Of a stretch of 64,000 nt of DNA, positions 400-40,437 are shown piece by piece. The notes under the pieces were generated by a model. The model ran no database searches. It saw only the letters and a list, made by a program, of their open reading frames with translations, and was not told the origin of the DNA. The first letter of the stretch is position 1, and each line of letters opens with the position of its first letter. The DNA lies in IMG/VR virus record IMGVR_UViG_3300042892_004373, positions 9,061 to 73,060 of that record; one strand, given 5' to 3'. This DNA comes from a virus. Position numbers and translations under genes: made by a program.

Positions 400-1035
400 T
401 TATTTTGTTGTTAAAATTAATCTGTCGATTCCAAGTGCAAAACCAACCCCACCTTCATAAGAACCACCACCACAAATTTGTTTTTGTGCTCCTAATTCTG
501 GACATGAGATTTCAAATCCTTTACCACCTTTGTAGTAGTCAAGTCCTCTTGTTGCATCTAAGTTTACTTCATAGTTATCAGTTGCTAATTCAATTAGTTT
601 AGTTGCGATTTCTAACATTTCATCAGTCATATCTTGAGTTGGGTTGATTACTTCAACTCCGAATTGCGTGAATTGTCTGTATCTACCAGCTTGTGGTTTT
701 TCACCTCTAAAACATTCTCCAATATAGAATAATTTAACATTCTTAGTCATTTTAAATGTTTCGTTTGCAAGTTGTTGAACAACTGCTGTGTATTCTGGTG
801 CTAAGCAAATGTCTCTGTTACCTCTATCAGTAAAAGTATACATCATGTTGTTATTTTCTTCACCTACTTTACTAGCGAATGTTTCAGTTAGTTGAATAAC
901 TGGGATCATCATTTCTTGATAACCATAAGATTCCATAATCTCGATCATTTGATTTAGTAATCTTCTTTTGTTTCTGGCAGTTTCACCAAAAACTATCCTC
1001 GTACCTTTGTACGTTTTACTTGTCTTTATCTCCAT
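400..1035 (-). CDS. hisS: Minimal histidyl-tRNA synthetase (catalytic core only, ~211 aa)
   Basis: Class II motif 2 FRGEKPQAGRYRQFTQFG, RGLDYY His-binding loop, GGGSY, motif 3 GFALGIDRL; ends right after motif 3. Start moved to ATG 1035 because the longer ORF start lies in the attenuator hairpin. Confidence 0.8.
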   Translation of the reverse strand: MEIKTSKTYKGTRIVFGETARNKRRLLNQMIEIMESYGYQEMMIPVIQLTETFASKVGEENNNMMYTFTDRGNRDICLAPEYTAVVQQLANETFKMTKNVKLFYIGECFRGEKPQAGRYRQFTQFGVEVINPTQDMTDEMLEIATKLIELATDNYEVNLDATRGLDYYKGGKGFEISCPELGAQKQICGGGSYEGGVGFALGIDRLILTTK

Positions 1036-1060
1036 TTTAATAATATATTTTTTGTTTAAT

Positions 1061-1091
1061 AAAAAAGCCCAGATCATTATAATCTGGGCTT
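1061..1091 (-). terminator. Attenuator terminator of the His leader
   Basis: AAGCCCAGAT-tataatg-ATCTGGGCTT followed by U-run; 5' arm also complementary to AATCTGGGT in the leader ORF. Confidence 0.8.
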
Positions 1092-1123
1092 ATGTTTAAA
1101 TTAGCAATTTTTAAGACATATAC

Positions 1124-1180
1124 TTACGACCCAGATTTCTCTGTGTGATGATGTAGTTTATATGTTGTTTTCATTTTCAT
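1124..1180 (-). promoter_or_regulatory. His attenuator leader peptide MKMKTTYKLHHHTEKSGS
   Basis: ATG AAA ATG AAA ACA ACA TAT AAA CTA CAT CAT CAC ACA GAG AAA TCT GGG TCG TAA; three tandem His codons upstream of terminator and hisS; TATATTTG promoter element just upstream. Confidence 0.85.
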
Positions 1181-1227
1181 ACTGCAAATATATTACTTTT
1201 TATTTTATTATACAAATAAATTTTATT

Positions 1228-1611
1228 TTATTGGACATTTATATTTTGTGGTAGTGCTAAGAAACCACCATATAAGTTATACCCTATATAAAAATTAAAG
1301 GATATACCACTGGTATTTGGTGTTAAAGTAAATGTGCCACCTAATGTGCCACTCCCATCAATATATAGCTGAATAAAACTATTATCTATATTTTCAACAA
1401 ATTGATTTGCTCTACTAAATGAAGGTGATGTACCATCTATCCACCAGTAAAGAAATGTACCTTCTGAAACTCCAGATATACCACTTATAGTAAATGTTAT
1501 TGTACTACCTTGTGTTGGATTATAGTTACTTGCCACAAATGTTGGTTGTGAAGGTGGAGGAGGTGTATTTCCATCTCCTGTAAAACTTGTTCCTATTATT
1601 GATTGTATCAT
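1228..1611 (-). CDS. Hypothetical beta-rich protein (possible virion/fibre accessory)
   Basis: ORF downstream of large fibre gene; G/S/T-rich. Confidence 0.5.
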   Translation of the reverse strand: MIQSIIGTSFTGDGNTPPPPSQPTFVASNYNPTQGSTITFTISGISGVSEGTFLYWWIDGTSPSFSRANQFVENIDNSFIQLYIDGSGTLGGTFTLTPNTSGISFNFYIGYNLYGGFLALPQNINVQ

Positions 1612-1711
1612 ATTTTATTTTTTATTTTTTATTTGCTATTATATATTATTTTTAATAAAGAAGCAATTGTTATTAGACAATTGCTTCTTAATTTTATTAG
1701 TTTTTCTATTT

Positions 1712-4700
1712 TTAGTCATTATTTCCTAAACCTGCACCACTTACCATCCATTTATCTGGTCCAATTTTCAATATTGTTGCCATTGAGTTATTTGGAATAT
1801 AAAAGTCGTTACTTGTAGTATCAAATCCTGCACCCCATAACTCAGTAGTATCACTATCATCAGTTCTAATATATGTCCAGCTATCACCGCTAACTACAGT
1901 AATCGCGGATCCTATAGGAAAAGGAACATTTCTATTTATAGGAATAATAACACTATAATTACTTTCAGTATCTTTATAGATATGTTTTCCAATATCACTT
2001 AGTTGTAAGTAATAATCATCATAAAATGGATGATAAACTTGAGGTATTACACCTGCACTAGAAGTTTGTTTTGTCCCATCTGAAAATACTATACCACTAT
2101 CTACATCATTTATTCTATCTATATTATTATCTTTATTATAATCACTATTACCGAAATAGAAATCTCTTGAATGTGTTATTGAATGTGTTCCAACTAATGG
2201 TGTGAATGTATCAAAATAACTTTGTGTTATTGATATTGATCTTATTGAGTAATTACCTTCTAAATAGTTTGATACTCCTCCATAATTTACCAGTGAACCA
2301 TCTGTAGGTAAATTTGCCACAAATGCGTTGTGATACTCATTTGACATTACATCTGTATATCCTACTAGTGCTAACTTACTACCATCAAAGCTTATAGCTA
2401 ATCCATTACTTTCCTCGATTAGGCTATAATCTTCTTTACCACCTATAATATTACTCCAAATTAAGACACCGTCTGTGTTAAGTTTGAATAATCTTAATGC
2501 ATCATCCTCAAAACCAAAACTACTTTCATAATCTGAAGTTAATACATATATATTATCATTAGAATCAGTTACTACACTACTTGTGTTCTCATCATCAGTT
2601 CTTTTTTGCCATAATAATTCACCATCAGTTGTTATCTTAGAGATTACTGTCTCATTATCATCATCACTATGGTGGGTTGTTACAATGCTATTAGTACCTA
2701 ATATAGCAACAGACTTTCCTGAACAGTTGTCATCTACTTCATTAAGTGCTTTAGTCCATAAGTGATCACCATCAGAATTAAATTTACTAAGAATTGCAAT
2801 TTGTTCTCCACTTAATGATGATGTTAAACCACCACCATATGCGTGACCAATTGCATATATATTGTTATCTGCATCAGTAGTAACAGAACTAAACTTATCA
2901 CTATCATCATCTGTATTACCACCTAATGTTCTTTCCCAATTTTCGGTATATATATAAGCTTCTGCTCCAATTGATTTATAGATTGACCAAGTTCCTGACG
3001 CACTAAAGTCAACTGATGTACTTATAGTTAAGTATAAACTTGAGGTACTACCTGTTCCTGATATACTTGGAATTTGGAAAAGTCCTGCATCATTTGAATT
3101 ATTGACTAATATACAATCATTTGAACTTGTTCCTCCTAGTTTATTACCAGGTATGGTAATAATATCATTCAGTACATAACCAGATTGTGATCCAATAATA
3201 TTTAAAACAGAATAAACTCCTGTAGTTGGATCATTAAATACATCAAATGATGCACCTGATCCCTCTGTTGTTGAACCAGTTACTCCTATAAAACTTTGAG
3301 TTCCTGATGGTGATAGTCCAGTTGGTCCATTACCTGTAATACTTGCTGCTAATATTCCACCATTTGATGCTGTTGCTGTTTGTATAATAGTTGCATCATT
3401 ATCTGGGGTAATACCACCTAAGTTTGTACCTGGTACAATTATTGGTTTAAGTATATCTAGACTATATCCAGTACCTGGTGTATCTACACCAAGAATTGTA
3501 TAAATACCGGTAGTATTATCTAATTGTATTGTAAATGATGCACCCACTCCACCTGGTGTTAGTGAACCTGTTACTCCAAAAAAGGTATTTACGTAAGTTA
3601 AATCTTCATCTCCTGTGATACCTGTACCACCAATAGACCAAGCACCATTATTATTTGGGTTCTCATTATTAATACTACTTGAAGATATAACTAAAGTACT
3701 AAATGTGCTACCAGAAAGAACTGATGAAGTTCCAATTACCCATTCAAAATATTCTGTCTCTTTTTGACCAACAATGATCAATTCATTATTACTATTAAAA
3801 GTCATATCATGTAGATAAATATCTCCTTGATTTTCAGATATATTTATATCTTTTAATCTAATTACTTTTTTAATTTGAGCACTTTCTGTATCAATTCTTA
3901 CGATAAGTCCTTCTGCAAAGTTATCCGGATATGTTTCACATAAAACTACTAAATCACCATTTATAGGATCAATTTTTATTGATTTTGCTCTCCCATCTTC
4001 ATTGTTATCATCATTAAAAATTGAAATCGACCATATTACATCTCCAGTTTTGTTAAACTTTACTACAATTGGTCTGTTATCATCATGATCTTCACCAACA
4101 CAATAAGTATTGTTATGAATATCCATTACAACAGATCTAAATTCAATGTCATCATTGTAGTTATATAATGGTCCAAATACTGACATCCATCCTAAGGTAT
4201 CTGTTTCTGGTAGAATTAAATCTTTATTAGATAATTCTAATTTTGTATCTCCAAGTGATAATGTATTACCATCTGCAATTAAAACATTTACTTGTTTTGT
4301 ACCATCACCATCAGCTCCGGTATCACCACTATACCAAATTTTATCAATATCTGTATTTATTGCAACCATTGCAAAAATACTTTCATTATATAAAGTAATA
4401 TAACTACTAGATGTTCCAAATGAATTATCTTCAATTATTTCACCTGCACCATAGTTTATACCGTATGCAGTAAAGAATCTAGTACTTATATCTGTATTAT
4501 TGTTTCCACCAACACTATATGTTCCTACACCACCTTCTAATGGGCCGGTAAGTACATATAGGTCATATTGGGTATCCTGGTTATATTTTATAACTTGTCC
4601 TACTGATAGTGTTCCTGATATGATCTCTGTTACAGTAAGAATATTACTATTATAATTATTATCAATGTATTCAATTGATCCTATAAATTCGGTGATACTT

Positions 4701-5953
4701 TTATCTGTTGTTATGTAATTTGAACCATCATATTGATCAGATCCGCCATCTCCTATTGATCGTATTGGCCAAGGATTTGAATTATTTATATATGGACTTG
4801 TATAATCTGGTATACCATTTACATTAGTATTCTCTATAACTCCATCTCTTATAGATGTTACTAAAATTGAGGCATCATTATTACCACCACTAATAGTATA
4901 ACCTTCACCTAAATCAACAGTATAGCTATCACCACCATCAATTAGTGTTGCACCAGTAACTGAACCAGTTGGGCTTGTTGTTATATAAAAAAATGCCCAA
5001 TCTCCTGGACCTTGTACATTATAATATCCATCAGTATATCCAGTACCTGAATGGAAAATTTCAAATGTATCAATATGGCCATTATCAACACTTAATACCT
5101 CTATCTCAGCATCATTAGCAGGACTAAACCCACCTAAAGCAGTACCTGAAATGTTAATTAGATCACCACTTTGAAAACCATATGTGAAGTTAGTATTTGT
5201 AAAATCGGGAGAAGGTCCACCTGGTCCTCCTTCTCCTGGTCCAAAATCATATTCTTTATAATCACCTTCACGTTTACGCATACTGAATGTTCCACTTCCG
5301 GTTCCGGTAGTAGTATATGAATCTACAGCATATGTTATTTGAGTATCTAAAAATGAGAAATTATTATATAATGATCCTGTTGGTAAAGAAGATGTTAGCG
5401 TTTCTATGTTATCATAAAATAAATCTCTTATTATTGTAAGATCTGAGTTAAGAGTACCTTCAGAATATAATATAATATCAACAAACTTTTCTACAAAGGT
5501 TCTAATATCTTTAAGTTTTAAAGGCCTTTTAGAATCGGCACCATAAACATTAAGTACAACTACAGTATCACTACCACTAAGTCCAGTTACATAGAAATCA
5601 TCATTCTCTGTATCATTAGTTCTATTTTGATAGGATGTGTTTGAATTTTTACTTATAATGATTTGTGTTATTGTAGGATCTGCACCGAATAATCTATTTA
5701 TTCCAGCATAAAATCCTCTATATCCAGATGCTGCCACACCTGAAGTTCCAGATGTTCCGTTTATACCGGATGTACCAGAAGAACCGGATGTACCAGAAGA
5801 ACCGGACGTACCAGATGTACCAGAAGTTTCAGATCCGGTTCCACCATTGTTAGTAAGTGCTAATTCTTCTAAGTATAAGAAGTTATTATCCATTTCTGAA
5901 ATGGTTAATCTACTATTTTTTTCACTTCTTAAAGTTAATGAGTAAGTTGACAT
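1712..5953 (-). CDS. Large tail-fibre/receptor-binding-like protein with GTS repeats and beta-propeller-like segments
   Basis: 1413 aa; N-terminus MSTYSLTLRS..EMDNNFLYL shared with 41310-42836; GTSG repeats; repeated xxKxxxxGxxxW units; fibre-like C-terminal PFPIGSAITVV..KWMVSG. Confidence 0.65.
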   Translation of the reverse strand: MSTYSLTLRSEKNSRLTISEMDNNFLYLEELALTNNGGTGSETSGTSGTSGSSGTSGSSGTSGINGTSGTSGVAASGYRGFYAGINRLFGADPTITQIIISKNSNTSYQNRTNDTENDDFYVTGLSGSDTVVVLNVYGADSKRPLKLKDIRTFVEKFVDIILYSEGTLNSDLTIIRDLFYDNIETLTSSLPTGSLYNNFSFLDTQITYAVDSYTTTGTGSGTFSMRKREGDYKEYDFGPGEGGPGGPSPDFTNTNFTYGFQSGDLINISGTALGGFSPANDAEIEVLSVDNGHIDTFEIFHSGTGYTDGYYNVQGPGDWAFFYITTSPTGSVTGATLIDGGDSYTVDLGEGYTISGGNNDASILVTSIRDGVIENTNVNGIPDYTSPYINNSNPWPIRSIGDGGSDQYDGSNYITTDKSITEFIGSIEYIDNNYNSNILTVTEIISGTLSVGQVIKYNQDTQYDLYVLTGPLEGGVGTYSVGGNNNTDISTRFFTAYGINYGAGEIIEDNSFGTSSSYITLYNESIFAMVAINTDIDKIWYSGDTGADGDGTKQVNVLIADGNTLSLGDTKLELSNKDLILPETDTLGWMSVFGPLYNYNDDIEFRSVVMDIHNNTYCVGEDHDDNRPIVVKFNKTGDVIWSISIFNDDNNEDGRAKSIKIDPINGDLVVLCETYPDNFAEGLIVRIDTESAQIKKVIRLKDINISENQGDIYLHDMTFNSNNELIIVGQKETEYFEWVIGTSSVLSGSTFSTLVISSSSINNENPNNNGAWSIGGTGITGDEDLTYVNTFFGVTGSLTPGGVGASFTIQLDNTTGIYTILGVDTPGTGYSLDILKPIIVPGTNLGGITPDNDATIIQTATASNGGILAASITGNGPTGLSPSGTQSFIGVTGSTTEGSGASFDVFNDPTTGVYSVLNIIGSQSGYVLNDIITIPGNKLGGTSSNDCILVNNSNDAGLFQIPSISGTGSTSSLYLTISTSVDFSASGTWSIYKSIGAEAYIYTENWERTLGGNTDDDSDKFSSVTTDADNNIYAIGHAYGGGLTSSLSGEQIAILSKFNSDGDHLWTKALNEVDDNCSGKSVAILGTNSIVTTHHSDDDNETVISKITTDGELLWQKRTDDENTSSVVTDSNDNIYVLTSDYESSFGFEDDALRLFKLNTDGVLIWSNIIGGKEDYSLIEESNGLAISFDGSKLALVGYTDVMSNEYHNAFVANLPTDGSLVNYGGVSNYLEGNYSIRSISITQSYFDTFTPLVGTHSITHSRDFYFGNSDYNKDNNIDRINDVDSGIVFSDGTKQTSSAGVIPQVYHPFYDDYYLQLSDIGKHIYKDTESNYSVIIPINRNVPFPIGSAITVVSGDSWTYIRTDDSDTTELWGAGFDTTSNDFYIPNNSMATILKIGPDKWMVSGAGLGNND

Positions 5954-6059
5954 ATTTTTTTAAATGATTTTTTATATGGTATATATTATTTAAAAAATAT
6001 CAAATTTTACCGAATCTTGATTTAAAATATAAAAAAAGAGAGAGCAAATGCTCTCTCTT

Positions 6060-7331
6060 TTATCTTAATATTGTTTGTGTTCGGTCAGGACCAACTGATA
6101 CTATTTTAATTGGTGTTTCTAACTCTTTTTCGATGAACTCTATATATTCTTTTAATTCACCTGGTAAACTATCAAAATCTTTTACCTTAGTTATATCTTC
6201 CGACCAACCATCAAACCCTATGTAAATAGGTTCTAGGTTCTCTGGTTCAATATTATAAGGAAAGTGAGTGATTATCTCACCTTTATATTTATAACCTGTA
6301 CAAACCATTATTTTATCAAATCCAGATAACACATCACCTTTCATCATCATAAGTTCAGTAACTCCATTGATTTGACAAGTATATTTAAGTGCAACTAAAT
6401 CTAACCAACCACATCTTCTAGCTCTACCAGTAACAGAACCAAATTCGTTACCAATCTTGGCCATTTTTTCACCTACTTCATCAAATAATTCTGTTGGGAA
6501 TGGTCCACTTCCAACTCTTGTTGTATAAGCTTTGAAAATACCATAAACATCTTTGATTCGATTAGGTGCAATTCCTAATCCAGTACAAGCTCCTGCTGCC
6601 GTTGTATTAGAAGAGGTAACAAATGGATAAGTACCAAAGTCAACATCTAATAAAGAACCTTGTGCACCTTCGCATAGAATAGATTTTCCATCTCTTTGAG
6701 CTTGATGTAAATACTCTTCACTATCGATAAAAGTAAATTGTTTTAGATAAGCAAGTGCATCTAAAAATTCTTCTTCCATATCTTCATAGTTAGTATTAAA
6801 TTGTTTAGTAACACCCCACTCAATTAGTTCTTCGTGTTTCTCAAAAAGTTTGCAAAATCTTTTGTGAAAGTCTGGTAATTCTAAATCACCAACTCTGATT
6901 CCATTTCTACCTGTTTTATCCATATAAGTCGGTCCAATTCCTTTAAGAGTTGATCCAATTTTATCTTTACCTTTGGCTACTTCAGAAGTTGCATCTAAAA
7001 GTTTGTGAGTAGGTAGAATTAAGTGAGCTTTTCTTGATATAAGCAATCTTTTTTTGACATCCATATCAAACTTAGCTAAAGCTTCTACTTCTTGTCTAAA
7101 TACAACCGGATCAAGTACAACACCATTACCAATTATATTTACTGTGTCTTTATGAAAGATACCAGAAGGTATAGTTCGTAGTACGTGTTTGATACCGTCA
7201 AACTCCAATGTATGTCCTGCATTTGGACCTCCTTGAAACCTTGCAACAATATCATATTTTGCGGTTAAAACGTCAACGATTTTACCTTTTCCTTCGTCTC
7301 CCCATTGAAGACCTAATAATAAATCTGCCAT
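6060..7331 (-). CDS. purA: Adenylosuccinate synthetase
   Basis: QWGDEGKGK P-loop, GGPNAGHT, EGAQG, GTYPFVTSS, TGRARRCGWLD. Confidence 0.97.
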   Translation of the reverse strand: MADLLLGLQWGDEGKGKIVDVLTAKYDIVARFQGGPNAGHTLEFDGIKHVLRTIPSGIFHKDTVNIIGNGVVLDPVVFRQEVEALAKFDMDVKKRLLISRKAHLILPTHKLLDATSEVAKGKDKIGSTLKGIGPTYMDKTGRNGIRVGDLELPDFHKRFCKLFEKHEELIEWGVTKQFNTNYEDMEEEFLDALAYLKQFTFIDSEEYLHQAQRDGKSILCEGAQGSLLDVDFGTYPFVTSSNTTAAGACTGLGIAPNRIKDVYGIFKAYTTRVGSGPFPTELFDEVGEKMAKIGNEFGSVTGRARRCGWLDLVALKYTCQINGVTELMMMKGDVLSGFDKIMVCTGYKYKGEIITHFPYNIEPENLEPIYIGFDGWSEDITKVKDFDSLPGELKEYIEFIEKELETPIKIVSVGPDRTQTILR

Positions 7332-7565
7332 TTATTCTTCTATTTTTATAAATCTTGGTTCAATCCCACCTCTTTTATTCTCAACTGTTTCACACCAAAT
7401 TGAAAGTGGTCTTGCATAAGTTGATCCAAATGATAATGATTGATAAATTACTAAAGGTTCTTTAGTTTCTGTATGATTTGCTAGAGTGATGATTTTATAT
7501 CTACCACCTTTGTAGTGTTGCCAAGTTTCCCCTGGCATAATTCCATAGTTTAATTCTTGTTCCAT
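7332..7565 (-). CDS. DUF1653-like protein
   Basis: WQHYKGGRY..ANHTET.EPLVIYQSL..YARPL signature. Confidence 0.8.
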   Translation of the reverse strand: MEQELNYGIMPGETWQHYKGGRYKIITLANHTETKEPLVIYQSLSFGSTYARPLSIWCETVENKRGGIEPRFIKIEE

Positions 7566-7566
7566 T

Positions 7567-7950: not shown

Positions 7951-7968
7951 TGAATATATATTTTTAAA

Positions 7969-8226
7969 TTATACTAATTGTTGTAACATATGTTGTCTTC
8001 TATATTGAATAAATATTTTTTTACATTGTTCTATTACTAAGTCACCTTCACTATCGGTATAATGTAAACTACTTAGTTCTAATTCATAAGATGAATGTCC
8101 CGAATCTATAATTAGAATAGGACCGGTTGTTAAATCTGATTTGTAATGATAGTCTAAGTAAACTATATTACTTGGATAAAGTAGTTTAACTTCATCTAAG
8201 AATTTATTTATTAGTTTATGTTCCAT
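7969..8226 (-). CDS. Hypothetical protein (C-terminal RxxxLxxL tag)
   Basis: ORF ends RRQHMLQQLV. Confidence 0.5.
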   Translation of the reverse strand: MEHKLINKFLDEVKLLYPSNIVYLDYHYKSDLTTGPILIIDSGHSSYELELSSLHYTDSEGDLVIEQCKKIFIQYRRQHMLQQLV

Positions 8227-23233: not shown

Positions 23234-24490
23234 TTAGTTTAATTTAGCTCGGATTCCAGGTGTATATATCTCCAACAATTGTATCAATTGTTCTTTACAC
23301 TCTGTAGTCAATGCTTTATTTTTGTTTTGATTCAACAAAATCATAAATGAACTTACAACTTTGTTGAACTTAAAAGCATCAGTAAAATCAAATATAGTTT
23401 TTTTGAATGATTCTATATCAATAGTTTCTTCTCCAGTTTTATACAACCAAGTTTTCATTCTACCAATAAATCTTCTAATTCCAATTATATTTTCATCTGA
23501 CCAAGAACCCCCATCAAAGTAGTGACCAATAAACATCAAATAAAATCTGATTTCATCTGAATCATATCCATCCAAACTAACTACATTTCCTTTAGATTTA
23601 GACATTTTTTCTCCCTCATTCAAAATCATTCCTTGATGTACCAACTTAGTTATTGGTTCTTCAAAGTCGATAAATCCAATATCATACAAAAACATTGTAA
23701 TAAATCTGATATAAATCAAGTGCATACAAGCATGCTCTGATCCACCAACATACAAATCAACTGGCTTAGGTTTAATACCTTTCATAATACAATAGATGAT
23801 GGTGTAGATAGAACTATCTACAAATGTATCCATTGTATCAGTTTCTCCATCAATAGGAATAGGACAACCCCAACTTCTTTGTCTTGAAACACACCAGTCA
23901 TGTTGATTTTCCAACCAATTTCTTTGCGACTTTATTGTAGATTCTGGAAAGTCAATCTTATCCAAACCTGCAATCAATCTTTCTTTATAATCTGTGATTT
24001 TGAAGTACCATTGGTTCAATGTTTTCTTTTCTACTTCTGTAGAACATCTTTCACATTTACCATCTTTTACTTGTTCTCTTGCCAATACGGTTTCACAACT
24101 ATTACAGAAGTCAACTTCACCATCTTTCTTATAAGCCAAACCTTTGTCATACAATTGTTTAAACAACCATTGTGTGTACTCAATATAGTCGGGATTTGAA
24201 GTAACCAAAATTTCTTCGTATTGGGTATTCATATTTTCCATTTGTTTCTGGAAATTTTGTATATTTTCGTAGGTAACTTCTCTTGGATCTCTACCTACTT
24301 TTTTTGCATAATTCTCTGCTGGCAAGCCGAATGCGTCATATCCAAAAGGTTGAAATACGGTATCACCTTTATATCTCAAGTATCTGCAGTAACTATCCAT
24401 AATGGCATAGTTATACCAGTGACCACAATGCAATCCTGATCCACTTGGATAAGGAAACATTACAGTTACATATTTATAATTATCAGTCAT
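23234..24490 (-). CDS. leuS: Minimal leucyl-tRNA synthetase (no CP1 editing domain, 418 aa)
   Basis: MFPYPSG, HCGH (HIGH), GYDAFGLPAEN, DWCVSRQRSWG, DTMDTF, GGSEHA, KMSKS. Confidence 0.9.
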   Translation of the reverse strand: MTDNYKYVTVMFPYPSGSGLHCGHWYNYAIMDSYCRYLRYKGDTVFQPFGYDAFGLPAENYAKKVGRDPREVTYENIQNFQKQMENMNTQYEEILVTSNPDYIEYTQWLFKQLYDKGLAYKKDGEVDFCNSCETVLAREQVKDGKCERCSTEVEKKTLNQWYFKITDYKERLIAGLDKIDFPESTIKSQRNWLENQHDWCVSRQRSWGCPIPIDGETDTMDTFVDSSIYTIIYCIMKGIKPKPVDLYVGGSEHACMHLIYIRFITMFLYDIGFIDFEEPITKLVHQGMILNEGEKMSKSKGNVVSLDGYDSDEIRFYLMFIGHYFDGGSWSDENIIGIRRFIGRMKTWLYKTGEETIDIESFKKTIFDFTDAFKFNKVVSSFMILLNQNKNKALTTECKEQLIQLLEIYTPGIRAKLN

Positions 24491-28843: not shown

Positions 28844-29686
28844 TTAGTCTTGTAATTCAAGTTGTTCTTGATTTTGTTTTTGAAGTAACTCCATAGCTCT
28901 TGCTAATCTTGTTAAACCAATTCCTGCACCAAATCTTGGAAAGAAGTCAAATTTTAAGAACTCTTCTAGTTCTGCTTCTACTCTTTCTTTTCCAAATAAT
29001 TCAAATAGTTTTTTAGAATATCCACCATTTTCTATTGTATAGAACATTTTTCTCATAGATTCAACATCACAACTTCTTTCTGCAGCGCCTATTGTTTCTT
29101 GTCCATATAATATTATATCAACTTTATTGAATATATCATCTTTTTGATTTTGCATGTTCCAAAATGGATTAGTTCTTAGTGGAAAGTTTTGAAGAGAAAC
29201 ACAATGACTTACTTCATTCCACATTTTAGTTTCATGTTCATTTTCTAAAATTGATACGTCTCCATATTCTTTACAAGTTTTGTTGTAGTCCATTTCAACA
29301 GGTAAACCAAATCCTAAATACTCAAGAAGTTCTTTTTCTAATAGAATTAAGTCTTTATATTTACCTTTTGATTCAAATTCAAACATTGGAAAGATTAGTT
29401 CATGTCTTCCAGGAATTGGATTTTTTTCTGCTCTGTAACTTGTAGATATACAAAAAACTCCATCCCAAGTAGGGTTTTTTAATAATTCATACTCGAGCCA
29501 CATTTGTCCTGTTTGTGGTAACGGCCATATCTCACCATTGTATTCAAAAGTTGATACTGAGTGTGGGTTTTCACAAGCTGCTAAAATTGATAGTCTTGAT
29601 TGTGTTGGTACTTCTACGAAGTTTTTTTCCAAAAAAAATTCTCTTAGTTTCTGAACTAGAGAATTGTACATTAAAGTGTTTGTCAT
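28844..29686 (-). CDS. Asn/Asp-tRNA synthetase-like catalytic domain without OB-fold (possibly asparagine synthetase)
   Basis: LPQTGQ, motif 2 YRAE..RH...FPMFEFE, ETIGAAER, motif 3 GAGIGLTRL; 280 aa. Confidence 0.8.
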   Translation of the reverse strand: MTNTLMYNSLVQKLREFFLEKNFVEVPTQSRLSILAACENPHSVSTFEYNGEIWPLPQTGQMWLEYELLKNPTWDGVFCISTSYRAEKNPIPGRHELIFPMFEFESKGKYKDLILLEKELLEYLGFGLPVEMDYNKTCKEYGDVSILENEHETKMWNEVSHCVSLQNFPLRTNPFWNMQNQKDDIFNKVDIILYGQETIGAAERSCDVESMRKMFYTIENGGYSKKLFELFGKERVEAELEEFLKFDFFPRFGAGIGLTRLARAMELLQKQNQEQLELQD

Positions 29687-33121: not shown

Positions 33122-33124
33122 AAT

Positions 33125-34525: not shown

Positions 34526-34542
34526 AGTATATATATTATGTT

Positions 34543-34836
34543 TTAGAAATATCTTTTGATATTTCCCACCTTGTCTATTAGAACATTTTTACCATCTTTT
34601 TTACGTACTAATATATCTGTTCCTGAAAATCTTGCTTCTAATACTCCTTGTGATAAAACTCTTATTGGATTGCCTCCAATGTCTTTAGTTTCTAGTTTAC
34701 CATCTATACTAGTTATTAAAAAAATTTTTTGTGATTCGTCATATGTACCAAATGCAACATTCTCAGATATTCTTCTACCAAGGTTTCCCATAGTATCACA
34801 TATGTATAGTGATTGATTTAGTATTTTAAACATCAT
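34543..34836 (-). CDS. Hypothetical protein
   Basis: ORF; true start probably MGNLG. Confidence 0.5.
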   Translation of the reverse strand: MMFKILNQSLYICDTMGNLGRRISENVAFGTYDESQKIFLITSIDGKLETKDIGGNPIRVLSQGVLEARFSGTDILVRKKDGKNVLIDKVGNIKRYF

Positions 34837-34870
34837 AACTTTTATATAATTTTATTATATATATAATAAT

Positions 34871-35017
34871 ATGGAAAAGAAAAATATATTTCTTTTATTA
34901 GATGATGAGATTGTAACACGTTATAAAGAACATCTAGATAAAGTAGGATATGATAAAAATAAGCTATTTGAAAGAATTATTATTGATTTTTTAAAGAAAA
35001 ATACAATAAAGTCTTAA
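34871..35017 (+). CDS. Small ribbon-helix-helix-like protein (48 aa)
   Basis: MEKKNIFLLLDDEIVTRYKEHLDKVGYDKNKLFERII; below the track cutoff. Confidence 0.45.
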   Translation: MEKKNIFLLLDDEIVTRYKEHLDKVGYDKNKLFERIIIDFLKKNTIKS

Positions 35018-35069
35018 AAAGGTACTTTTAGGTATTTTTTATTTATATATAGCATTAAGGAAAATAATT

Positions 35070-35279
35070 ATGAGATACTTGAAAGAATTTAACGAAAATA
35101 AGGATGTATTCATGGAATACCTACTTGAGTTTACTGAGGACGGTAAGCCAGAAGAGCTTTTTAATAGTAGATTAAGTAAATTACTTAGATTTGTGAGAGT
35201 GGAAGGTATTAAAAACTATACTATAAAAGGAACAACAAAATCAGGAGAAACTAAATTAGTTTTAAAAATAGGAAAATGA
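35070..35279 (+). CDS. Small protein with N-terminal tag (MRYLKEFNE)
   Basis: ORF followed by terminator. Confidence 0.55.
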   Translation: MRYLKEFNENKDVFMEYLLEFTEDGKPEELFNSRLSKLLRFVRVEGIKNYTIKGTTKSGETKLVLKIGK

Positions 35280-35304
35280 AGAACCCACTCGAAAGTGGGT
35301 TTTT

Positions 35305-36273
35305 TTAATTCATATAATCTGTGAAAAATTGTTCAAAAATAGCTTGCATTACCGGGATACATATTGAGTTTCCTGCTAAAGCTACGTGTTGTTTAGTTGA
35401 TAAACTTGTAGTTAGTAAGTTATCAATGTCTGTATCTTTAACTCCCATAAAACGATATCCTTCTCTTGCGGTTAAAGTTCTAATTTTCTTATTATCTAAT
35501 ATAATTTGTGGAGATCCTGATGTAGTTAGACAAGGCGAACATCCATCAATAGAATAAATTCGTCTGGCTTGATCATATTTTACGTCACTTCTACGGGCAG
35601 CTAATTTACAAACAGAACTTAACTTAGGTGTATTTATTTCATAAGGTGGTGTAATGAATAAACTATTATCTACAATTGTTTCAACAAATTCTCTCATCGG
35701 AACTCTAGTTTTTTTATGATTATGAACACCCATCATTTTATTAGAAACTTCTAAAGATGATTCTCCTAACACTGAAAACATGAAAACTCTCTCACGATTT
35801 TGAGGACATCCGAAGTCAGCACCATTAAGTACCATCCAAGCAGAACCATAACCTAAAGAGTTAAGTTTTTCAATATAATCGTTAAATTTTTTGATGTGAT
35901 TTTTGGAAACTAGATTTTTAACATTTTCCATTAAAAGATACTTTGGTTTATTATGTTCTACGATTCTTTCAACTTCGTATAATAAACCGCTTCGTGTTCC
36001 TCTTTCAATACCACGTTGTACTCCAGATATAGATATATCTTGACAAGGAAATGAATATGTTAAGAAATCACAATGTGGAAATGTTTTTTCGTCAACTTTT
36101 GAAACATCTCCTAAATTACCTTCTTCGGTAGTGTGTAAAGAGTCGTAAGCTTCATTTGCTGATTTAAGAATGTCACAATTTGCGACGTTACGGTATTTAA
36201 TACCACTATACTTTAGTGCTAGTTCTTGAGTACCATACCCTGAGAATAGACTTATAATTTTTAATTCTTCCAT
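35305..36273 (-). CDS. DNA cytosine-5 methyltransferase
   Basis: FSGYG, FPCQ, ENV, PQNRERVF, AGNS. Confidence 0.92.
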   Translation of the reverse strand: MEELKIISLFSGYGTQELALKYSGIKYRNVANCDILKSANEAYDSLHTTEEGNLGDVSKVDEKTFPHCDFLTYSFPCQDISISGVQRGIERGTRSGLLYEVERIVEHNKPKYLLMENVKNLVSKNHIKKFNDYIEKLNSLGYGSAWMVLNGADFGCPQNRERVFMFSVLGESSLEVSNKMMGVHNHKKTRVPMREFVETIVDNSLFITPPYEINTPKLSSVCKLAARRSDVKYDQARRIYSIDGCSPCLTTSGSPQIILDNKKIRTLTAREGYRFMGVKDTDIDNLLTTSLSTKQHVALAGNSICIPVMQAIFEQFFTDYMN

Positions 36274-36303
36274 ATTAAATTATATGGAAGAATTAAAAAA
36301 TGT

Positions 36304-36777
36304 TTAGTCTAAATGTCTAATATCTTTGTGTGATGACTTTTGTTTACCGTTGTGTGACCACAATCTTGCAAATGGTGTGGTGAAATAATCATTATAACAT
36401 AAAGTATCATCAATATGTAGATCTATATTGTTTTCTTTACAGTATTCTGCTTTTGTTGAATCCCATAGAACATCGTCAAATTTTTTCTGAATAGTTCCAT
36501 CTGGAAATTCAATTTCTCCTAATGTTTCTGCGGTTTTTAATAAGTGGTCATAAACTGAAAATTTATGTGTATAGTTTATACCACTTAATTGTTTTTCTAA
36601 TTTGTCTGTCCATTCACCGCCAGTGATTACGTGAACTTCTCCCCCATTTTTTACAATAGAGTCTGCTAAAAATACAAAGAACTCTGGAAGTGCATCGATT
36701 ACTCCGTGTATATCAATACCAATTTTGAATTTTGAGGTTGAACTTTCGTTCACTATACTACTAAATTTTGTTATCAT
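36304..36777 (-). CDS. HAD-like protein
   Basis: IGIDIHGV, ITGG, K..C, HIDD. Confidence 0.65.
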   Translation of the reverse strand: MITKFSSIVNESSTSKFKIGIDIHGVIDALPEFFVFLADSIVKNGGEVHVITGGEWTDKLEKQLSGINYTHKFSVYDHLLKTAETLGEIEFPDGTIQKKFDDVLWDSTKAEYCKENNIDLHIDDTLCYNDYFTTPFARLWSHNGKQKSSHKDIRHLD

Positions 36778-36787
36778 AATTTATATA

Positions 36788-37180
36788 TTAAATTATTTCT
36801 TCGATTTTCTTATCTCTCATTTCTGCAGTAGATAGAATTTCTTGTACAAAGATATGAAAATGTTTTGTATTATGTATTAAATCTAATGAAATATTTGTAT
36901 GTGCTCCCATACCATTTGTATGTGAGTTTAGTATTGGTTCAGAAGTGGTTACAGTACCCCAATAATTGAAACCATGTTGTTTAAAATATTCATTTGTACC
37001 ATTTGTATCTACCCAATGTTCTATTATAAATGTTTTATTTTCTGTTTCATTTGGATCAAATTCGTATAAAATAGTATATTGTGAATTATTATACATTACA
37101 TTTAGAAGTTTACTCCAAGCGGGAACTACAAATGTGGCTTGATTATAACTGATATGTTGTGATTGTGTTCTTATTATCAT
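36788..37180 (-). CDS. Hypothetical protein with RDxKI tag
   Basis: Ends MRDKKIEEII. Confidence 0.55.
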   Translation of the reverse strand: MIIRTQSQHISYNQATFVVPAWSKLLNVMYNNSQYTILYEFDPNETENKTFIIEHWVDTNGTNEYFKQHGFNYWGTVTTSEPILNSHTNGMGAHTNISLDLIHNTKHFHIFVQEILSTAEMRDKKIEEII

Positions 37181-37539
37181 ATTCCTAATTTAGTTAAAAT
37201 TTTATCTCTATAGAAACTTATATCATCGACAATAAAAAGGTTTGAATCTGTAATAATTAGATTATCAATAATCTCAATAATCTTTGAGGTTGTCTGCATT
37301 GGTATAAATCCAGATTGATAACTTGTAACTATTTGATTTATTTCTAACAAATCTACCTTAGCAGTTTCTAGATGTACAATACCTTTACATTTTTGTAAAG
37401 AATATTTGTCTATAAATTCTTTATTATTTAAAATTTTTTTATAGTATTTATTTTCAATATCTACCATAACATAGGAAACCTCAGTGGATTTACCACTGAG
37501 GTGATTATGAATTAAATCTCCTACTTTAGCCAATTTCAT
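37177..37539 (-). CDS. Hypothetical protein with RDxxL tag
   Basis: Ends YRDKILTKLGI. Confidence 0.55.
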   Translation of the reverse strand: MKLAKVGDLIHNHLSGKSTEVSYVMVDIENKYYKKILNNKEFIDKYSLQKCKGIVHLETAKVDLLEINQIVTSYQSGFIPMQTTSKIIEIIDNLIITDSNLFIVDDISFYRDKILTKLGI

Positions 37540-38372
37540 TATAGTATTTTATTACCAGTTTTTGAGCCTAAAACAACTGCGGGTGTACCATTTTCTAGTT
37601 CACCTGGCATAATCATTGCTTGTGACTCAATACCCATCATTTTAACAGGTTTTAAATTTGTTACGAACAAGAAAGAGTATCCTTCTAATTTATCAACATA
37701 GTTCTCACCTAATGAAGATTTAATATTTGTTACAACAACTCTTGGTGTGTCTTCACCAAAGTCAACTTCTAACTTAATAAGTTTTTCTGATTTAGGTACA
37801 TCTGTTACTGATATAATCTTTCCTGTTTTAATTTCTAATTTAGATGATACATCTAAAAATTCACTGAATTCTATTTTATCTTTCATGTTTAATATATTTA
37901 TTGCTTTAATTTTACATTCTTCTTTTAATCCTGGAATTCCTAATTTCCAAGGTTTTACTGGTTCTCCTGTTGAACAATTTACAAAATAATCTTGTTGTTC
38001 ATCTAAGAAATCTTGTATATCATCAAATATAACATACTGAGTTACTTCTGGGTGTCTATCTAACCAAAGTTTAATTTCGTGGCCTCTTTTTACTTGATCA
38101 TAATAAACTATGTTGGTTGCTTCACATACATCTACGCAATCTGGTGTTACATCAATAATTTCACCTGGTAGATTACGTTCTTTCCAAAGTGATAACATTC
38201 GTTCTATTCCTTTATCTTTCCAAGTTGAGGAGATAACGATTTTTGCTCCTGTTTTCTCGATAACTTCCTTTAAGTTCTGGACGTACTCATCCCTGAAGAT
38301 ATGACCAAATTGGTCTTTATCTGCATAATCTACGTTTAAAACTCCGTCAATGTCTAGAAATATCGTTTTCAT
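37539..38372 (-). CDS. HAD (RNA-repair-associated type) fused to a Trbp111/MetRS-C tRNA-binding OB domain
   Basis: FLDIDGVLN, ISSTW, RGHEI..WL, YVIFDD; then LEIKTGKI..KLIKLEVDFGE..NLKPVKMMGIESQAM. Confidence 0.8.
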   Translation of the reverse strand: MKTIFLDIDGVLNVDYADKDQFGHIFRDEYVQNLKEVIEKTGAKIVISSTWKDKGIERMLSLWKERNLPGEIIDVTPDCVDVCEATNIVYYDQVKRGHEIKLWLDRHPEVTQYVIFDDIQDFLDEQQDYFVNCSTGEPVKPWKLGIPGLKEECKIKAINILNMKDKIEFSEFLDVSSKLEIKTGKIISVTDVPKSEKLIKLEVDFGEDTPRVVVTNIKSSLGENYVDKLEGYSFLFVTNLKPVKMMGIESQAMIMPGELENGTPAVVLGSKTGNKIL

Positions 38373-38389
38373 AATGGCAAATATACAAC

Positions 38390-38632
38390 TTAGTTTTGAT
38401 TTATTAAAAGAATTTTTTGATTTCTTGTTAGTTGTTTAATTCTCCATTCTTCTTTTGCTGCCAAAGATTTTGTTTCAAAAGATTGTTGATAAACTAATTT
38501 TACTGGTGTTCTAGTCTTGGTGTACTTCGCACCTTTCTTCTTATTGTGTGTATCAATTCTCTTTTCTACGTCATTACTAATACCAGTATAATAAGTTAGG
38601 TCTGAACATTCTATTATGTAAACTTTCCACAT
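38390..38632 (-). CDS. GIY-YIG nuclease (YhbQ-like)
   Basis: VYIIEC..YYTGIS..R...HN..GAKYT. Confidence 0.88.
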   Translation of the reverse strand: MWKVYIIECSDLTYYTGISNDVEKRIDTHNKKKGAKYTKTRTPVKLVYQQSFETKSLAAKEEWRIKQLTRNQKILLINQN

Positions 38633-38718
38633 ACCTTATATATTCACTTTCATGCAACATCATGATATATAACTAAATAAATATATAATTTTGGGTTTAA
38701 AATTTAATATATACTCTT

Positions 38719-39234
38719 ATGAAATACATAAAATTATTTGAAGATATAGTTCCTGCACATCAAAGTGGTTCAGATTATAGAAATAGAAACATTGATGAAA
38801 CTGTTGATGTTACTACATTAGATACAATGTTATTAAGATCACCGGTATATAATAAAGGTGAGATAATTATTTGGTCCGATAATGTAAAGAATAGAGATGT
38901 TGACTATGACTTTGCGGAGAAATTACTAAGAAGAGTAGGTCTTAAATTGATAGGAGAACCTTATGATGGTGGATTTTTAGTAAAATGTGAACCAGGAAAA
39001 GAAGAAGAGTCTGCAGAAAAAGTATTAGCTAGATTTCCTGAATTTTTTGATAGTTATGAAAGAGAAGATATAAGAATGCCTTTTATATCAAATAAAGTAG
39101 AAGAAATAAAGGATAAAGTTGAAGATATAGAAAGATTCTTTGAAAGTACTTTGAAGAAAAATGTAAATGTAACTAAATATAATAAGTATATTGATGATAT
39201 TATTAAAGACCTTGATAATCTAAAAATAAAATAA
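38719..39234 (+). CDS. Hypothetical protein with MKYIKLFE tag
   Basis: ORF after TAATATATA. Confidence 0.6.
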   Translation: MKYIKLFEDIVPAHQSGSDYRNRNIDETVDVTTLDTMLLRSPVYNKGEIIIWSDNVKNRDVDYDFAEKLLRRVGLKLIGEPYDGGFLVKCEPGKEEESAEKVLARFPEFFDSYEREDIRMPFISNKVEEIKDKVEDIERFFESTLKKNVNVTKYNKYIDDIIKDLDNLKIK

Positions 39235-39258
39235 AAAGTCCTTTTTCAAGGACTTTTT

Positions 39259-40437
39259 TTATACTTTATCTACTGGAAATAGTCCAATTTTTTTCATACC
39301 TATTTGTAAATCTGTCAATAAGTCAGAAAAAATCTTTTTGTTTACTTCATTATCTTTTATGTATAATTTCTCATACAATTTATTTATATTCTTACAATGA
39401 TTTACTAAAGCATCGAATAATATATTCGGTGATAAATTAGATTTGGTTTTTAATTCAGCAAATTCTAATTGTTTAGAATAGAAGTTTTCTTTATCTTGTA
39501 CTTCAACACCACAGCTTTTAATATGTGCCATAGTATAACTTAGATATAAACCTAAAGATAACTTTGGATTACCAATCAATTTTGTATCTATTGACTTACT
39601 AGAAGTCGGTCCAGATTTAAGTATTTGTCCTGCAATTATATTATAAACTAATTTTAAATCATTATTAAATAATGGTAATAAACTATTTATAAAATCAGTC
39701 ATGTAAATAACATTACCTTCACTACTAGACATTTTCTTACCATCTAATTGAACTAAGCCAAGACCAACGTGATTTGTAGTAGGAAATAACTTCTTTAAAG
39801 ATTTAAAGTGATTATCTTGTTCTACTCCTGTTAGATATAACGTAGAAGCATTTAATTTACTAGCTAGAGCTACATCTTGGTAGAAGTAAGAAGTAGAACC
39901 AGTACTTTTCACACCTACTAATTTCTCGTCTCCCAAATCGAAGATTTTAGAACCTTCATAAGTACCTTCACCTTCTTTTAATAAACTTTCATCTTGTAAT
40001 TTCATTTCAGATGCAAAGAACATTTCATCTACATTATAGTTAAAATTTTTACAATACTCAAAATAAGATTTTAAAGCATCATCTTTTTGAACTGCTCCTT
40101 CTAAAGTATCACCAAAAATGACAATAAATTTATTACCGACACCTAATTTTTGAAAAGCATTTGCTAATACAAGGTTGGAAAAGTGACCAACGTGTAAATG
40201 TTTATTTAAGTTTGGACTAAACCCGTCAATATAATCATACTTTTCAGGTTGATTAAACATATCAGAGATTTTTGTATCATCATTTAAGATGATGTTTGTG
40301 TATTTACCAGAATCTTCCGTTTTTAAATTCCAGTACTTACACCAATTTATAATTTCATCAGAGGGTTTTCCGAATACACAGAAGTTAAAACCTAAATCTG
40401 ATGGAGTTGTCTTTATTTTATTTATATCTATTTTCAT
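39259..40437 (-). CDS. argS: Reduced arginyl-tRNA synthetase (392 aa)
   Basis: SPNLNKHLHVGH, KS.G...Y...D.A, EQDNHF, KMSSSEG, C-terminal DALR-like helices. Confidence 0.85.
   Translation of the reverse strand: MKIDINKIKTTPSDLGFNFCVFGKPSDEIINWCKYWNLKTEDSGKYTNIILNDDTKISDMFNQPEKYDYIDGFSPNLNKHLHVGHFSNLVLANAFQKLGVGNKFIVIFGDTLEGAVQKDDALKSYFEYCKNFNYNVDEMFFASEMKLQDESLLKEGEGTYEGSKIFDLGDEKLVGVKSTGSTSYFYQDVALASKLNASTLYLTGVEQDNHFKSLKKLFPTTNHVGLGLVQLDGKKMSSSEGNVIYMTDFINSLLPLFNNDLKLVYNIIAGQILKSGPTSSKSIDTKLIGNPKLSLGLYLSYTMAHIKSCGVEVQDKENFYSKQLEFAELKTKSNLSPNILFDALVNHCKNINKLYEKLYIKDNEVNKKIFSDLLTDLQIGMKKIGLFPVDKV

Follow-up and report, generated by a model that had tools for sequence, protein, structure and literature searches.

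Short genes of aminoacyl-tRNA synthetase type in a huge phage: domain loss in four of five, and avoidance of cognate residues or codons in the Arg, His and Leu enzymes

Results

Five short synthetase-type genes lie in a phage fragment

The window analysed here comprises bases 9061-73060 of the 73,060-bp IMG/VR phage record IMGVR_UViG_3300042892_004373 (64 kb of 73 kb), has a G+C content of about 30% and reads in the standard genetic code. On its minus strand we confirmed five short open reading frames (ORFs) of aminoacyl-tRNA synthetase (aaRS) type, which a preliminary description of the sequence had read as a suite of miniaturised and partly anticodon-blind enzymes:

400..1077, minus strand: mini-HisRS, class II catalytic core only, 211-225 amino acids (PF13393, 1e-25)
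16819..17661, minus strand: mini-GluRS core, 280 amino acids, a Rossmann fold (HLGT, KLSKR) and the helical part that follows it (PF00749, 7e-45)
23234..24490, minus strand: mini-LeuRS, 418 amino acids, with HCGH, a four-Cys zinc module and KMSKS
28844..29686, minus strand: AsnRS-type class IIb core, 280 amino acids, without the N-terminal OB fold (PF00152, 4e-16, 59.4 bits)
39259..40437, minus strand: compact ArgRS, 392 amino acids, its Rossmann fold (HVGH, KMSSS) preceded by a small N-terminal domain and followed by a C-terminal helical one

As the preliminary description had it, the catalytic motifs of all five could be read from the translations, and they are invariant or near-invariant among orthologues: the motif 2 and motif 3 arginines, RGLDYY, the HIGH-type and KMSKS-type motifs and N76, Y184 and D188 of the ArgRS do not vary across 17-37 sequences. 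ORF lengths are kept in orthologues across 57-97% identity, and the ratio of non-synonymous to synonymous substitutions (dN/dS, Nei-Gojobori) against close relatives is 0.05-0.21 for all five genes. By their lengths, dN/dS and motifs, these genes are thus real, conserved and under purifying selection. A recoding artefact was ruled out, since the ORFs are identical under translation table 11, table 4 and a code reading TAG as glutamine.

CheckV puts the completeness of the record at 26%, which leaves about 74% of the genome unseen. Because genomes of relatives reach 350-676 kb at 97-100% completeness, the record is a fragment of a huge phage. The clade carrying the five enzymes consists of huge phages of about 0.35-0.7 Mb, probably with Bacteroidota hosts.

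Four of the five enzymes lack anticodon-binding or editing domains

The mini-HisRS probably starts at Met15 (position 1035), as its orthologues begin there, giving 211 amino acids. It contains class II motifs 1-3, with motif 2 FRGEKPQAGRYRQF and motif 3 GFALGIDRL, as well as RGLDYY and GGGSY (GGGxY); motifs 1-3, RGLDYY and GGxxY, the latter two of which are HisRS-specific, show no variation in 17 sequences and can be aligned to solved HisRS. The protein matches bacterial HisRS residues 25-163 and 258-306 and ends 5-10 residues past motif 3. Beyond the anticodon domain, the insertion domain of about 95 residues (chain about 163-258) is also gone, which corrects the earlier account. The family model hisS gave 165.7 bits (TIGR00442, cut-off 286.75) and hisZ 104 bits (TIGR00443, cut-off 271.65), both below their cut-offs; solved HisRS structures scored 100-121 bits, and the family profile reached 121 bits against HisRS but only 36 bits against HisZ. 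A grouping with HisZ, which had been named as a way in which the synthetase assignment could fail, was not borne out: the mini-HisRS scores nearer canonical HisRS, and HisG is absent from all 13 related phage records. Across IMG/VR we found 23 mini-HisRS loci with 18 distinct orthologues of 205-233 amino acids. A homodimer was predicted with an ipSAE of 0.86 (best control 0.00; pLDDT 86; at least 92% contact agreement between runs), and its interface lies in the N-terminal motif 1 region, residues 3-52. Among solved pairs 20 of 30 attained this mark, among single chains 1 of 23; the pass may reflect likeness to solved HisRS dimers. In a scan of genome contigs no cellular organism relying on a mini-HisRS was found; three close matches lay on contigs of metagenome-assembled genomes (MAGs) and are probably phage, and the scan otherwise returned full-length archaeal HisRS. 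One of the three, a 375,071-bp contig of a MAG labelled Bacteroidota (L182, JAVTWD010000016.1), encodes a mini-HisRS at 62% identity and is probably a huge phage co-binned with its host.

The mini-LeuRS has neither the CP1 editing domain nor the Leu-specific and C-terminal tRNA-binding domains. Its best model is leuS_bact with 372 bits, below the equivalog cut-off of 548.4, and its nearest solved match is the 637-residue chain 3ZIU (Mycoplasma mobile-type LeuRS, 264 bits), identified as M. mobile LeuRS because the chain holds the GKDG tetrapeptide described in the available passages of PMC3643597. At the site of the Leu-specific domain, where M. mobile LeuRS has GKDG, the phage protein has NEGE, a second correction to the earlier account. 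Compared with 3ZIU, about 80 further residues between the Rossmann halves are gone, and the protein ends near residue 540, about 100 residues short of the 3ZIU C-terminus. IMG/VR holds 30 mini-LeuRS loci at 59-94% identity, whose 25 distinct orthologues are 410-442 amino acids long, save one call of 263 and one of 487. The uncultured-phage records LR745206 (634,780 bp) and LR756501/LR756503 (735,411 bp), presumably from the study of Al-Shayeb et al. 2020, carry relatives of the mini-LeuRS (67% identity) and of the AsnRS-type core.

In the mini-GluRS, the PF00749 match falls into two stretches, profile positions 3-88 and 176-312, and positions 88-176 are missing. Aligned to bacterial GluRS, the protein covers 13-100 and 177-318 and stops near residue 345; besides the anticodon domain, the insert of about 77 residues between the Rossmann halves is gone, which again had escaped the earlier account. 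The models gltX_bact (204 bits; TIGR00464, cut-off 289.95) and GluQRS (121 bits; TIGR03838, cut-off 276.7) both stay below their cut-offs, EpmA reached only 17.8 bits in the same family-model scan, and solved bacterial GluRS scored 150 bits compared with 64 bits for YadB. The mini-GluRS is thus nearer canonical GluRS than GluQRS, the paralogue with which it had been suspected to group. Many GluRS-like proteins of 250-328 amino acids occur among 1.84 billion representatives, and all 10 short relatives tested scored 200-260 bits against gltX_bact vs 110-150 bits against GluQRS. Members of a cluster of GluRS-like forms of about 300 residues came from metagenomic sources only. A profile of such forms, which as a query favours short ones, matched 181 viral stretches, and the best 80 loci gave 59 complete distinct ORFs, 45 of them no longer than 328 amino acids; a single-protein scan of IMG/VR with a representative of about 300 residues gave no match. 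There are 25 mini-GluRS loci in IMG/VR, with orthologues of 252-283 amino acids. Among the related genomes, G001-G006 encode full-length GluRS/GlnRS-type genes of 475-573 amino acids, and the mini-GluRS occurs in G005, G007 and G009-G013.

The AsnRS-type core begins at profile position 26 of PF00152 and carries the motifs SYRAE and GAGIGLTRL, with the motif 2 and motif 3 arginines R85 and R260 invariant. Its AF2 model (pLDDT 92.6) has the class IIb fold, with AsnRS and AspRS as the top Foldseek matches (TM 0.75-0.77), and it shares a QxxQxxLE stretch with Brugia AsnRS. The archaeal asparagine synthetase A structures 3REX, 3REU and 1NNH rank 32nd or lower, behind AsnRS and AspRS, and are not among the profile hits at E≤0.001; no AsnA model appeared among the family-model matches at E≤0.01. 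The core occurs in at least 150 IMG/VR stretches (265-317 amino acids) and belongs to PHROG 29758, of unknown function; the Prochlorococcus phages P-SSM2, P-SSM5 and P-SSM7 have relatives that bear the annotation "tRNA ligase".

The compact ArgRS matched its sequence families weakly (argS 2.8e-8; TIGR00456 32.6 bits, cut-off 261.65; PF00750 18.3 bits, cut-off 23.3), staying below both cut-offs; many of its homologues do have a precomputed PF00750 match. Its AF2 model (pLDDT 92.8) aligned 370 of 392 residues to residues 23-607 of yeast ArgRS (VIA Z 27.0; root-mean-square deviation 3.7), and ArgRS chains outranked CysRS and MetRS in the structural comparison. All three ArgRS modules are kept in the model, including anticodon-domain-like C-terminal helices. 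Going by this model, the ArgRS is miniaturised but architecturally complete, and it is probably not anticodon-blind. A large protein collection contains 634 ArgRS homologues at E≤1e-3, the best 120 of which are 358-413 amino acids long, mostly 389-393.

The missing His and Leu domains are not encoded elsewhere in the genomes searched

Domains absent from a gene could be encoded elsewhere in the genome. In the 73-kb record, six anticodon and editing Pfam families had no match at E≤1, among them PF03129 (HGTP-type anticodon-binding domain), PF19269 (GluRS anticodon-binding domain), PF13603 (CP1 editing) and PF01336 (OB fold). Ten neighbouring small ORFs held no anticodon or editing domain, and there were no synthetase parts among the other 20 large ORFs at 43-64 kb. 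As a trace of split genes, the sole match was Arg_tRNA_synt_N in a 69-residue ORF (E=0.011), which lies below the cut-off and was rejected. The search was extended to five relatives that are 97-100% complete. HGTP_anticodon is absent genome-wide from G003 and G005, both of which encode a mini-HisRS; Anticodon_1 is absent from G003 and G004, both with a mini-LeuRS; and the LeuRS CP1 editing domain exceeded the cut-off in none of the five. The missing His and Leu domains were thus found neither in the 73-kb record nor in these near-complete relatives. HisRS-type matches occur in 8 of the 13 related records, six of them at least 97% complete, and all lie in frames of 215-262 amino acids, that is, in the mini form only; ArgRS-type matches, weak throughout, occur in 4 of 13 and only in frames of 392-437. 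The same genomes also encode near-full-size class II and class I enzymes of 375-749 amino acids, some with anticodon domains; trimmed synthetases thus occur in this clade alongside ordinary ones.

The Arg, His and Leu enzymes avoid their own amino acid or its usual codons

The ArgRS contains no arginine in 391 residues, compared with a background of 3.5%, and it is the only ORF without arginine among the 50 window ORFs of at least 150 amino acids. Among the best 120 listed homologues, 101 have no arginine and 10 have one. The window HisRS is likewise free of histidine, as are 17 of its 18 distinct orthologues, and the phage family reads RQFTQ where solved HisRS chains have RQFHQ or RQFNQ. In the LeuRS the avoidance lies at the codon level: 26 of its 27 leucines are encoded by TTG, where the background of the remaining ORFs is 7% and the ORF ranking second reaches 23%, and many orthologues are alike (19/19, 20/20, 28/33). 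Because enzymes of this composition could be made without their own product, which would be sensible for restarting the charging of that tRNA, the Arg, His and Leu enzymes may act in translation, and cognate avoidance is the strongest indirect evidence that they do. For the Glu enzyme, two distant orthologues may be noted in passing, with 0 Glu in 283 residues (L053, 2953-3801) and 2 Glu in 275 (L045, 724-1548).

Gene order in relatives links three of the enzymes to cognate tRNAs

In more distant relatives, the Leu, His and Asn-type genes lie within or beside arrays that include cognate tRNAs. Within 3 kb, tRNAs accompany eight of the 25 distinct mini-LeuRS loci; in five of these eight tRNA-Leu stands nearest, at 16 nt upstream in L028 and 22 nt in L026, and tRNA-Leu accounts for 22 of the 51 tRNAs near mini-LeuRS loci. 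For the mini-HisRS, a tRNA-His lies within 3 kb in 4 of the 10 loci that have nearby tRNAs, with two tRNA-His directly upstream in L079. Of the AsnRS-type core, 29 of 66 distinct members are followed 8-12 nt past the stop codon by a tRNA-Asn(GUU) of 83-89 nt that has G73, an encoded CCA and a long variable arm; the P-SSM7 gene lies inside a tRNA cluster (L163, GU071103.1, 117319-118209). A tRNA-Glu was included in only 2 of 5 mini-GluRS loci with tRNAs within 3 kb, and neither of the two ArgRS loci with nearby tRNAs had the cognate one. Gene order in relatives and cognate-residue avoidance support the link to tRNAs that had been proposed.

The tRNAs of the relatives are unusual in themselves. 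Arrays in L017, L025, L026, L061, L068, L069, L071 and L079 hold long-variable-arm versions of normally short-arm tRNAs with ordinary copies alongside (Lys 84-91 nt, Asn 87, His 90, Thr 85, Met 85-86, Ile 86, Trp 79-86, Arg 85 and Cys 84). Also present are tRNA-Leu of 74-75 nt without the long arm, adjoining mini-LeuRS genes that lack the C-terminal domain. At six more Asn-type loci an odd tRNA-like call of 99-103 nt occupies the same spot behind the gene. Behind the Asn-type gene of the window itself, only a terminator-like hairpin and chance-level Rfam matches were found, and no tRNA.

tRNA-Glu-bodied RNAs and RNA-repair genes accompany the synthetases

Several RNA features and RNA-repair genes share the window with the five enzymes:

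286-356, minus strand: tRNA-Cys(GCA), 44 nt behind the mini-HisRS gene, in the same order in relative L058
10031-10437, minus strand: GOLLD RNA (Rfam RF02032, 324 bits, full length), directly adjoining the tRNA-like RNA cluster
11076-11172, minus strand: tRNA-Glu-bodied RNA, about 5 kb from the GluRS core, as are the next three
11204-11292, minus strand: tRNA-Glu-bodied RNA
11467-11582, minus strand: tRNA-Glu-bodied RNA
11849-11953, minus strand: tRNA-Glu-bodied RNA
14406-15359, minus strand: polynucleotide kinase-phosphatase (PNKP), RNA-repair module
15629-16273, minus strand: RNA ligase, RNA-repair module with PNKP
37539..38372, minus strand: HAD_SAK_2 (RNA-repair-type HAD) fused to a Trbp111/MetRS-C-type tRNA-binding domain

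The four tRNA-Glu-bodied RNAs have an identical acceptor stem (GGUCUGU/ACAGACU, followed by A), a normal T arm and differing anticodon arms, and their D loop holds an inserted hairpin capped by UUCG or CUCG. One window copy has the anticodon loop CUUCGAA, the copy at 11076-11172 lacks an anticodon loop and bears a UUCG-capped hairpin, and in one G012 copy the loop contains UUC. Five such RNAs are encoded by each of the two closest relatives (G011:C1:21450-22593 and G012:C1:113701-114607). A strict pattern, too narrow for distant relatives, matched these two genomes (five each) and G005, G009 and G001 (one each), with no match in the mini-GluRS records G007, G010 and G013. From the distance of about 5 kb and the co-presence in three close genomes, the tRNA-Glu-bodied RNAs may be considered as candidate substrates for the GluRS core. 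Most of the ORF of this core is covered by contigs from two freshwater metatranscriptome studies (744 and 500 nt, two mismatches in each); this RNA evidence consists of assembled contigs over a 10-kb stretch, whose uncovered parts are uninformative.

The tRNA-Cys behind the mini-HisRS gene was considered as a hidden tRNA-His, which was ruled out by its U73, the lack of G-1 and its anticodon GCA. In total the window holds three ordinary tRNAs and one GOLLD RNA. At 14215-14405, where an S-domain-less RNase P RNA had been suggested, as in the rest of the window, no Rfam RNase P family matched at the gathering threshold.

The RNA-repair set comprises PNKP, RNA ligase, RlaP, two "Swiss Army Knife" HAD proteins and the HAD fusion, which is a possible trans-acting tRNA binder; RlaP and HAD_SAK_1 lie farther off, at 56450-57718 and 60309-60821. 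The density of this set suggests that the phage expects RNA or tRNA damage. The window further encodes a T4-type large terminase, NusA, ClpP, a ClpB-like ATPase, a topoisomerase subunit, adenylosuccinate synthetase and a phosphate transporter. A Bacteroidota host is indicated because one window protein carries a type IX secretion sorting domain and the tRNA-Cys is preceded by a TAnnTTTG-type sequence, a motif typical of Bacteroidota promoters.

Discussion

The five genes as probable streamlined phage synthetases

From gene integrity, conservation, selection, motifs, domain losses, gene order and composition we infer what these enzymes would catalyse, on which substrates and how they would recognise RNA. 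We consider it probable, with moderate confidence, that the five genes encode streamlined phage-specific aminoacyl-tRNA synthetases, and that those for Arg, His and Leu are working charging enzymes whose synthesis can go on when their own charged tRNA runs short; the assignment of the Glu and Asn-type cores is less certain. The ArgRS, HisRS and LeuRS would keep their amino-acid and ATP sites and would have shed editing, insertion and elbow-binding modules and, for His, the anticodon module, whereas the ArgRS would retain its anticodon-side module. With no Arg, no His or Leu encoded almost solely by TTG, they could be translated without their own product and so might restart the charging of tRNA-Arg, tRNA-His and tRNA-Leu in an infected cell short of these charged tRNAs, as might follow host shut-off or an attack by the host on tRNAs. 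HisRS and LeuRS systems depend little or not at all on the anticodon, and loss of these domains from the His and Leu enzymes therefore need not destroy specificity. Because the Asn-type family in marine phages directly precedes a private long-arm tRNA-Asn, the Asn-type core most likely charges a tRNA-Asn, which would be recognised by something other than its anticodon. The GluRS core would be a paralogue able to coexist with a full-length phage GluRS and probably glutamylates an RNA recognised without an anticodon. Of the earlier interpretation, the reality of the genes, the domain losses and the link to tRNA thus stand, and the ArgRS is probably not anticodon-blind.

Several observations weigh against this assignment. 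None of the five proteins reaches an NCBIfam equivalog cut-off. In the 73-kb record ARAGORN called only a tRNA-Cys, two tRNA-Met and one odd candidate, and in the two closest relatives (180 kb and 132 kb) likewise only a tRNA-Cys and two tRNA-Met; since the record holds no cognate tRNA genes, the cognates would be host tRNAs or lie in the unseen part of the genome. The loci compared for gene order are mutually related, and their counts reflect inherited gene order, not independent events. In the window's clade a terminator hairpin, not a tRNA, stands behind the Asn-type core, which shows no avoidance of Asn, and the 19 Glu of the window's mini-GluRS equal the background, without avoidance in that clade. 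Three other ORFs of the 50 in the window also have no histidine, which makes that count weak alone, and the TTG rule fails in some LeuRS orthologues (0/20 in L025, 3/29 in L029). The complete relative G005 has both a mini-GluRS and a full-length GluRS, the architecture of the Asn-type core is that of archaeal asparagine synthetase A (3REX/3REU/1NNH, TM 0.67/0.65), and the metatranscriptome contigs may stem from contaminating DNA. The inserts of canonical GluRS and HisRS touch the acceptor stem of the tRNA, and the mini-GluRS lacks the one by which canonical GluRS contacts the acceptor end. Reading of the acceptor/T half only, as envisaged in the preliminary description, therefore does not follow from the anatomy, since the Glu and His cores have also lost inserts that in canonical enzymes contact the acceptor stem. 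The C-terminal domain missing from the mini-LeuRS is crucial in Mycobacterium tuberculosis LeuRS, as reported in the part of PMC3561953 that was available.

Alternative explanations

A bolder version of the charging hypothesis holds that the anticodon-domain-less cores form private, anticodon-independent charging pairs with odd phage tRNAs, and, joined by the ArgRS without Arg, the HisRS without His and the LeuRS with its TTG codons, a self-starting, host-independent system; the Asn-type core would be paired with the long-arm tRNA-Asn, the GluRS core with the tRNA-Glu-bodied RNAs of swapped or replaced anticodon arms, and the LeuRS lacking its C-terminal domain with the short-arm tRNA-Leu of relatives. 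We regard this as unlikely overall; if true, such a system could work on after an attack on the host tRNA pool, or reassign which RNAs carry which amino acid. An equally low chance is given to some or all of these cores, above all the Glu and Asn-type ones, being non-charging paralogues that pass the amino acid elsewhere than to the tRNA 3' end, on the models of GluQRS (a tRNA base), AsnA or archaeal asparagine synthetase A (asparagine from aspartate and ammonia), EpmA (lysylation of EF-P) and HisZ (a histidine-sensing regulator). These paralogues share the architecture of a core without an anticodon domain, and two mini-HisRS clusters carry the automatic Atlas name 'HisZ family'. The full-length match of the Asn-type core to archaeal asparagine synthetase A, its wide spread outside huge phages (giant-virus bins included), the mini-GluRS beside a full GluRS in G005 and the absence of cognate avoidance from the Glu and Asn-type genes of the window's clade point the same way. 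Against them stand the scores: the window protein and all 10 short relatives are nearer gltX_bact than GluQRS, the mini-HisRS is nearer HisRS than HisZ, with no HisG in the 13 related phage records, no AsnA model matches at E≤0.01, and EpmA scores low. A tRNA-Asn directly behind 29 of 66 Asn-type cores and the shortage of Glu in some mini-GluRS orthologues (L053, L045) also argue for charging, and the avoidance of His, Arg and Leu is hard to explain for enzymes that do not charge tRNA.

Less probable again is that the cores charge RNA for a non-ribosomal use, with aminoacyl-RNA as a donor for modifying DNA, the cell envelope or proteins. At least one tRNA-Glu-bodied RNA, that at 11076-11172 with its UUCG-capped hairpin instead of an anticodon loop, cannot decode, its family is kept in five copies in each of the two closest relatives, and phage Mu Mom offers a precedent, using Gly-tRNA-Gly as a DNA-modification donor (PMC13219725, in the text available of it). 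However, no candidate transferase was identified beside these genes, the link of the GluRS core to these RNAs is one of a distance of about 5 kb and of co-presence in three close genomes, with G007, G010 and G013 unmatched by the strict pattern, and the cognate avoidance of the Arg, His and Leu enzymes points to translation. That the proteins are decoys or poisons, with class II cores pairing with the HisRS or AsnRS of the host into mixed dimers, or the whole set sequestering host tRNAs to reshape host translation, appears very improbable: the dimer interface predicted for the mini-HisRS and the loss of specificity-giving domains would suit such a role, but active-site residues that a decoy does not need are invariant across 17-37 sequences. 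Decaying remnants, or artefacts of gene calling or of the genetic code, are scarcely credible, even though each gene is roughly half the canonical length and the record is a fragment. Decay and mis-annotation are excluded by conserved lengths, low dN/dS and intact catalytic motifs, and the constancy of the ORFs under three codes and the confident AF2 models (pLDDT 92.6 and 92.8) agree with this. Streamlined phage synthetases remain our preferred explanation for the five genes, with less certainty for the Glu and Asn-type cores.

Implications

If active, the HisRS, GluRS, LeuRS and ArgRS would be the smallest natural forms of these enzymes that we found described, and they would test how little of a synthetase suffices for specific charging, a question so far approached mainly through engineered fragments, or "urzymes". 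An ArgRS without Arg, a HisRS without His and a LeuRS that relies on one rare codon suggest that, during infection, huge phages anticipate a shortage of particular charged tRNAs, and this composition would tie the synthetases to the RNA-repair genes and tRNAs nearby as well as to tRNA-cutting host defences. Compact, anticodon-independent enzymes, of which some come with private tRNAs, would also be candidate orthogonal pairs for engineering of the genetic code. For annotation, mini-synthetases fall under curated cut-offs and are inconsistently named, as HisZ, "tRNA ligase" or hypothetical protein.

Comparison with known systems

Huge phages carry as many as 15 tRNA synthetases in one genome, and their GluRS lies near Bacteroidetes sequences, according to the available text of Al-Shayeb et al. 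2020 (PMC7162821); the first figure is repeated in the accessible part of a 2026 review (PMC13359090). The available text of Al-Shayeb et al. makes no mention of truncated architectures, missing anticodon or editing domains or cognate avoidance, and its supplements may list lengths. In the full-text literature, a scope that leaves aside subscription journals and supplements, we found no paper on truncated phage synthetases or cognate-free synthetases.

Paralogues of similar size that lack an anticodon domain are known for three of the families, namely GluQRS (YadB) for GluRS, HisZ for HisRS and archaeal asparagine synthetase A for AsnRS. By profile coverage, however, GluQRS keeps the insert that the phage GluRS core has lost, and the family models and solved sequences of all three paralogues score well below canonical synthetases. 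The N-terminal-domain-less PylRS cores (PDB 8IFJ and 7R6O, 273-276 amino acids) are likewise natural compact class II synthetases, and recognition by them does not involve the anticodon. The whole of the mini-HisRS profile (positions 9-210) can be aligned to these cores with 37 bits, a weak similarity, but PylRS is a different family with a different amino-acid specificity.

M. mobile LeuRS (3ZIU, 637 amino acids) naturally lacks CP1, and the GKDG tetrapeptide replaces its Leu-specific domain, as stated in the same passages of PMC3643597; the phage LeuRS is 219 residues shorter. By analogy, the closest precedent for an enzyme that reads only the acceptor stem is the mini-AlaRS of Tupanvirus, which in the available text of PMC10036535 is viral, lacks the editing and elbow-binding domains, and is active on the acceptor stem only. 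That precedent concerns one enzyme, from a giant virus of eukaryotes, and no AlaRS reads the anticodon; the phage, in contrast, has five enzymes with deeper deletions, the internal inserts of the Glu and His enzymes being gone as well, and with an unusual composition. Natural mini-synthetases are thus known from Tupanvirus and M. mobile; for the truncated phage forms and their cognate-free composition we found no earlier description in the full-text literature searched.

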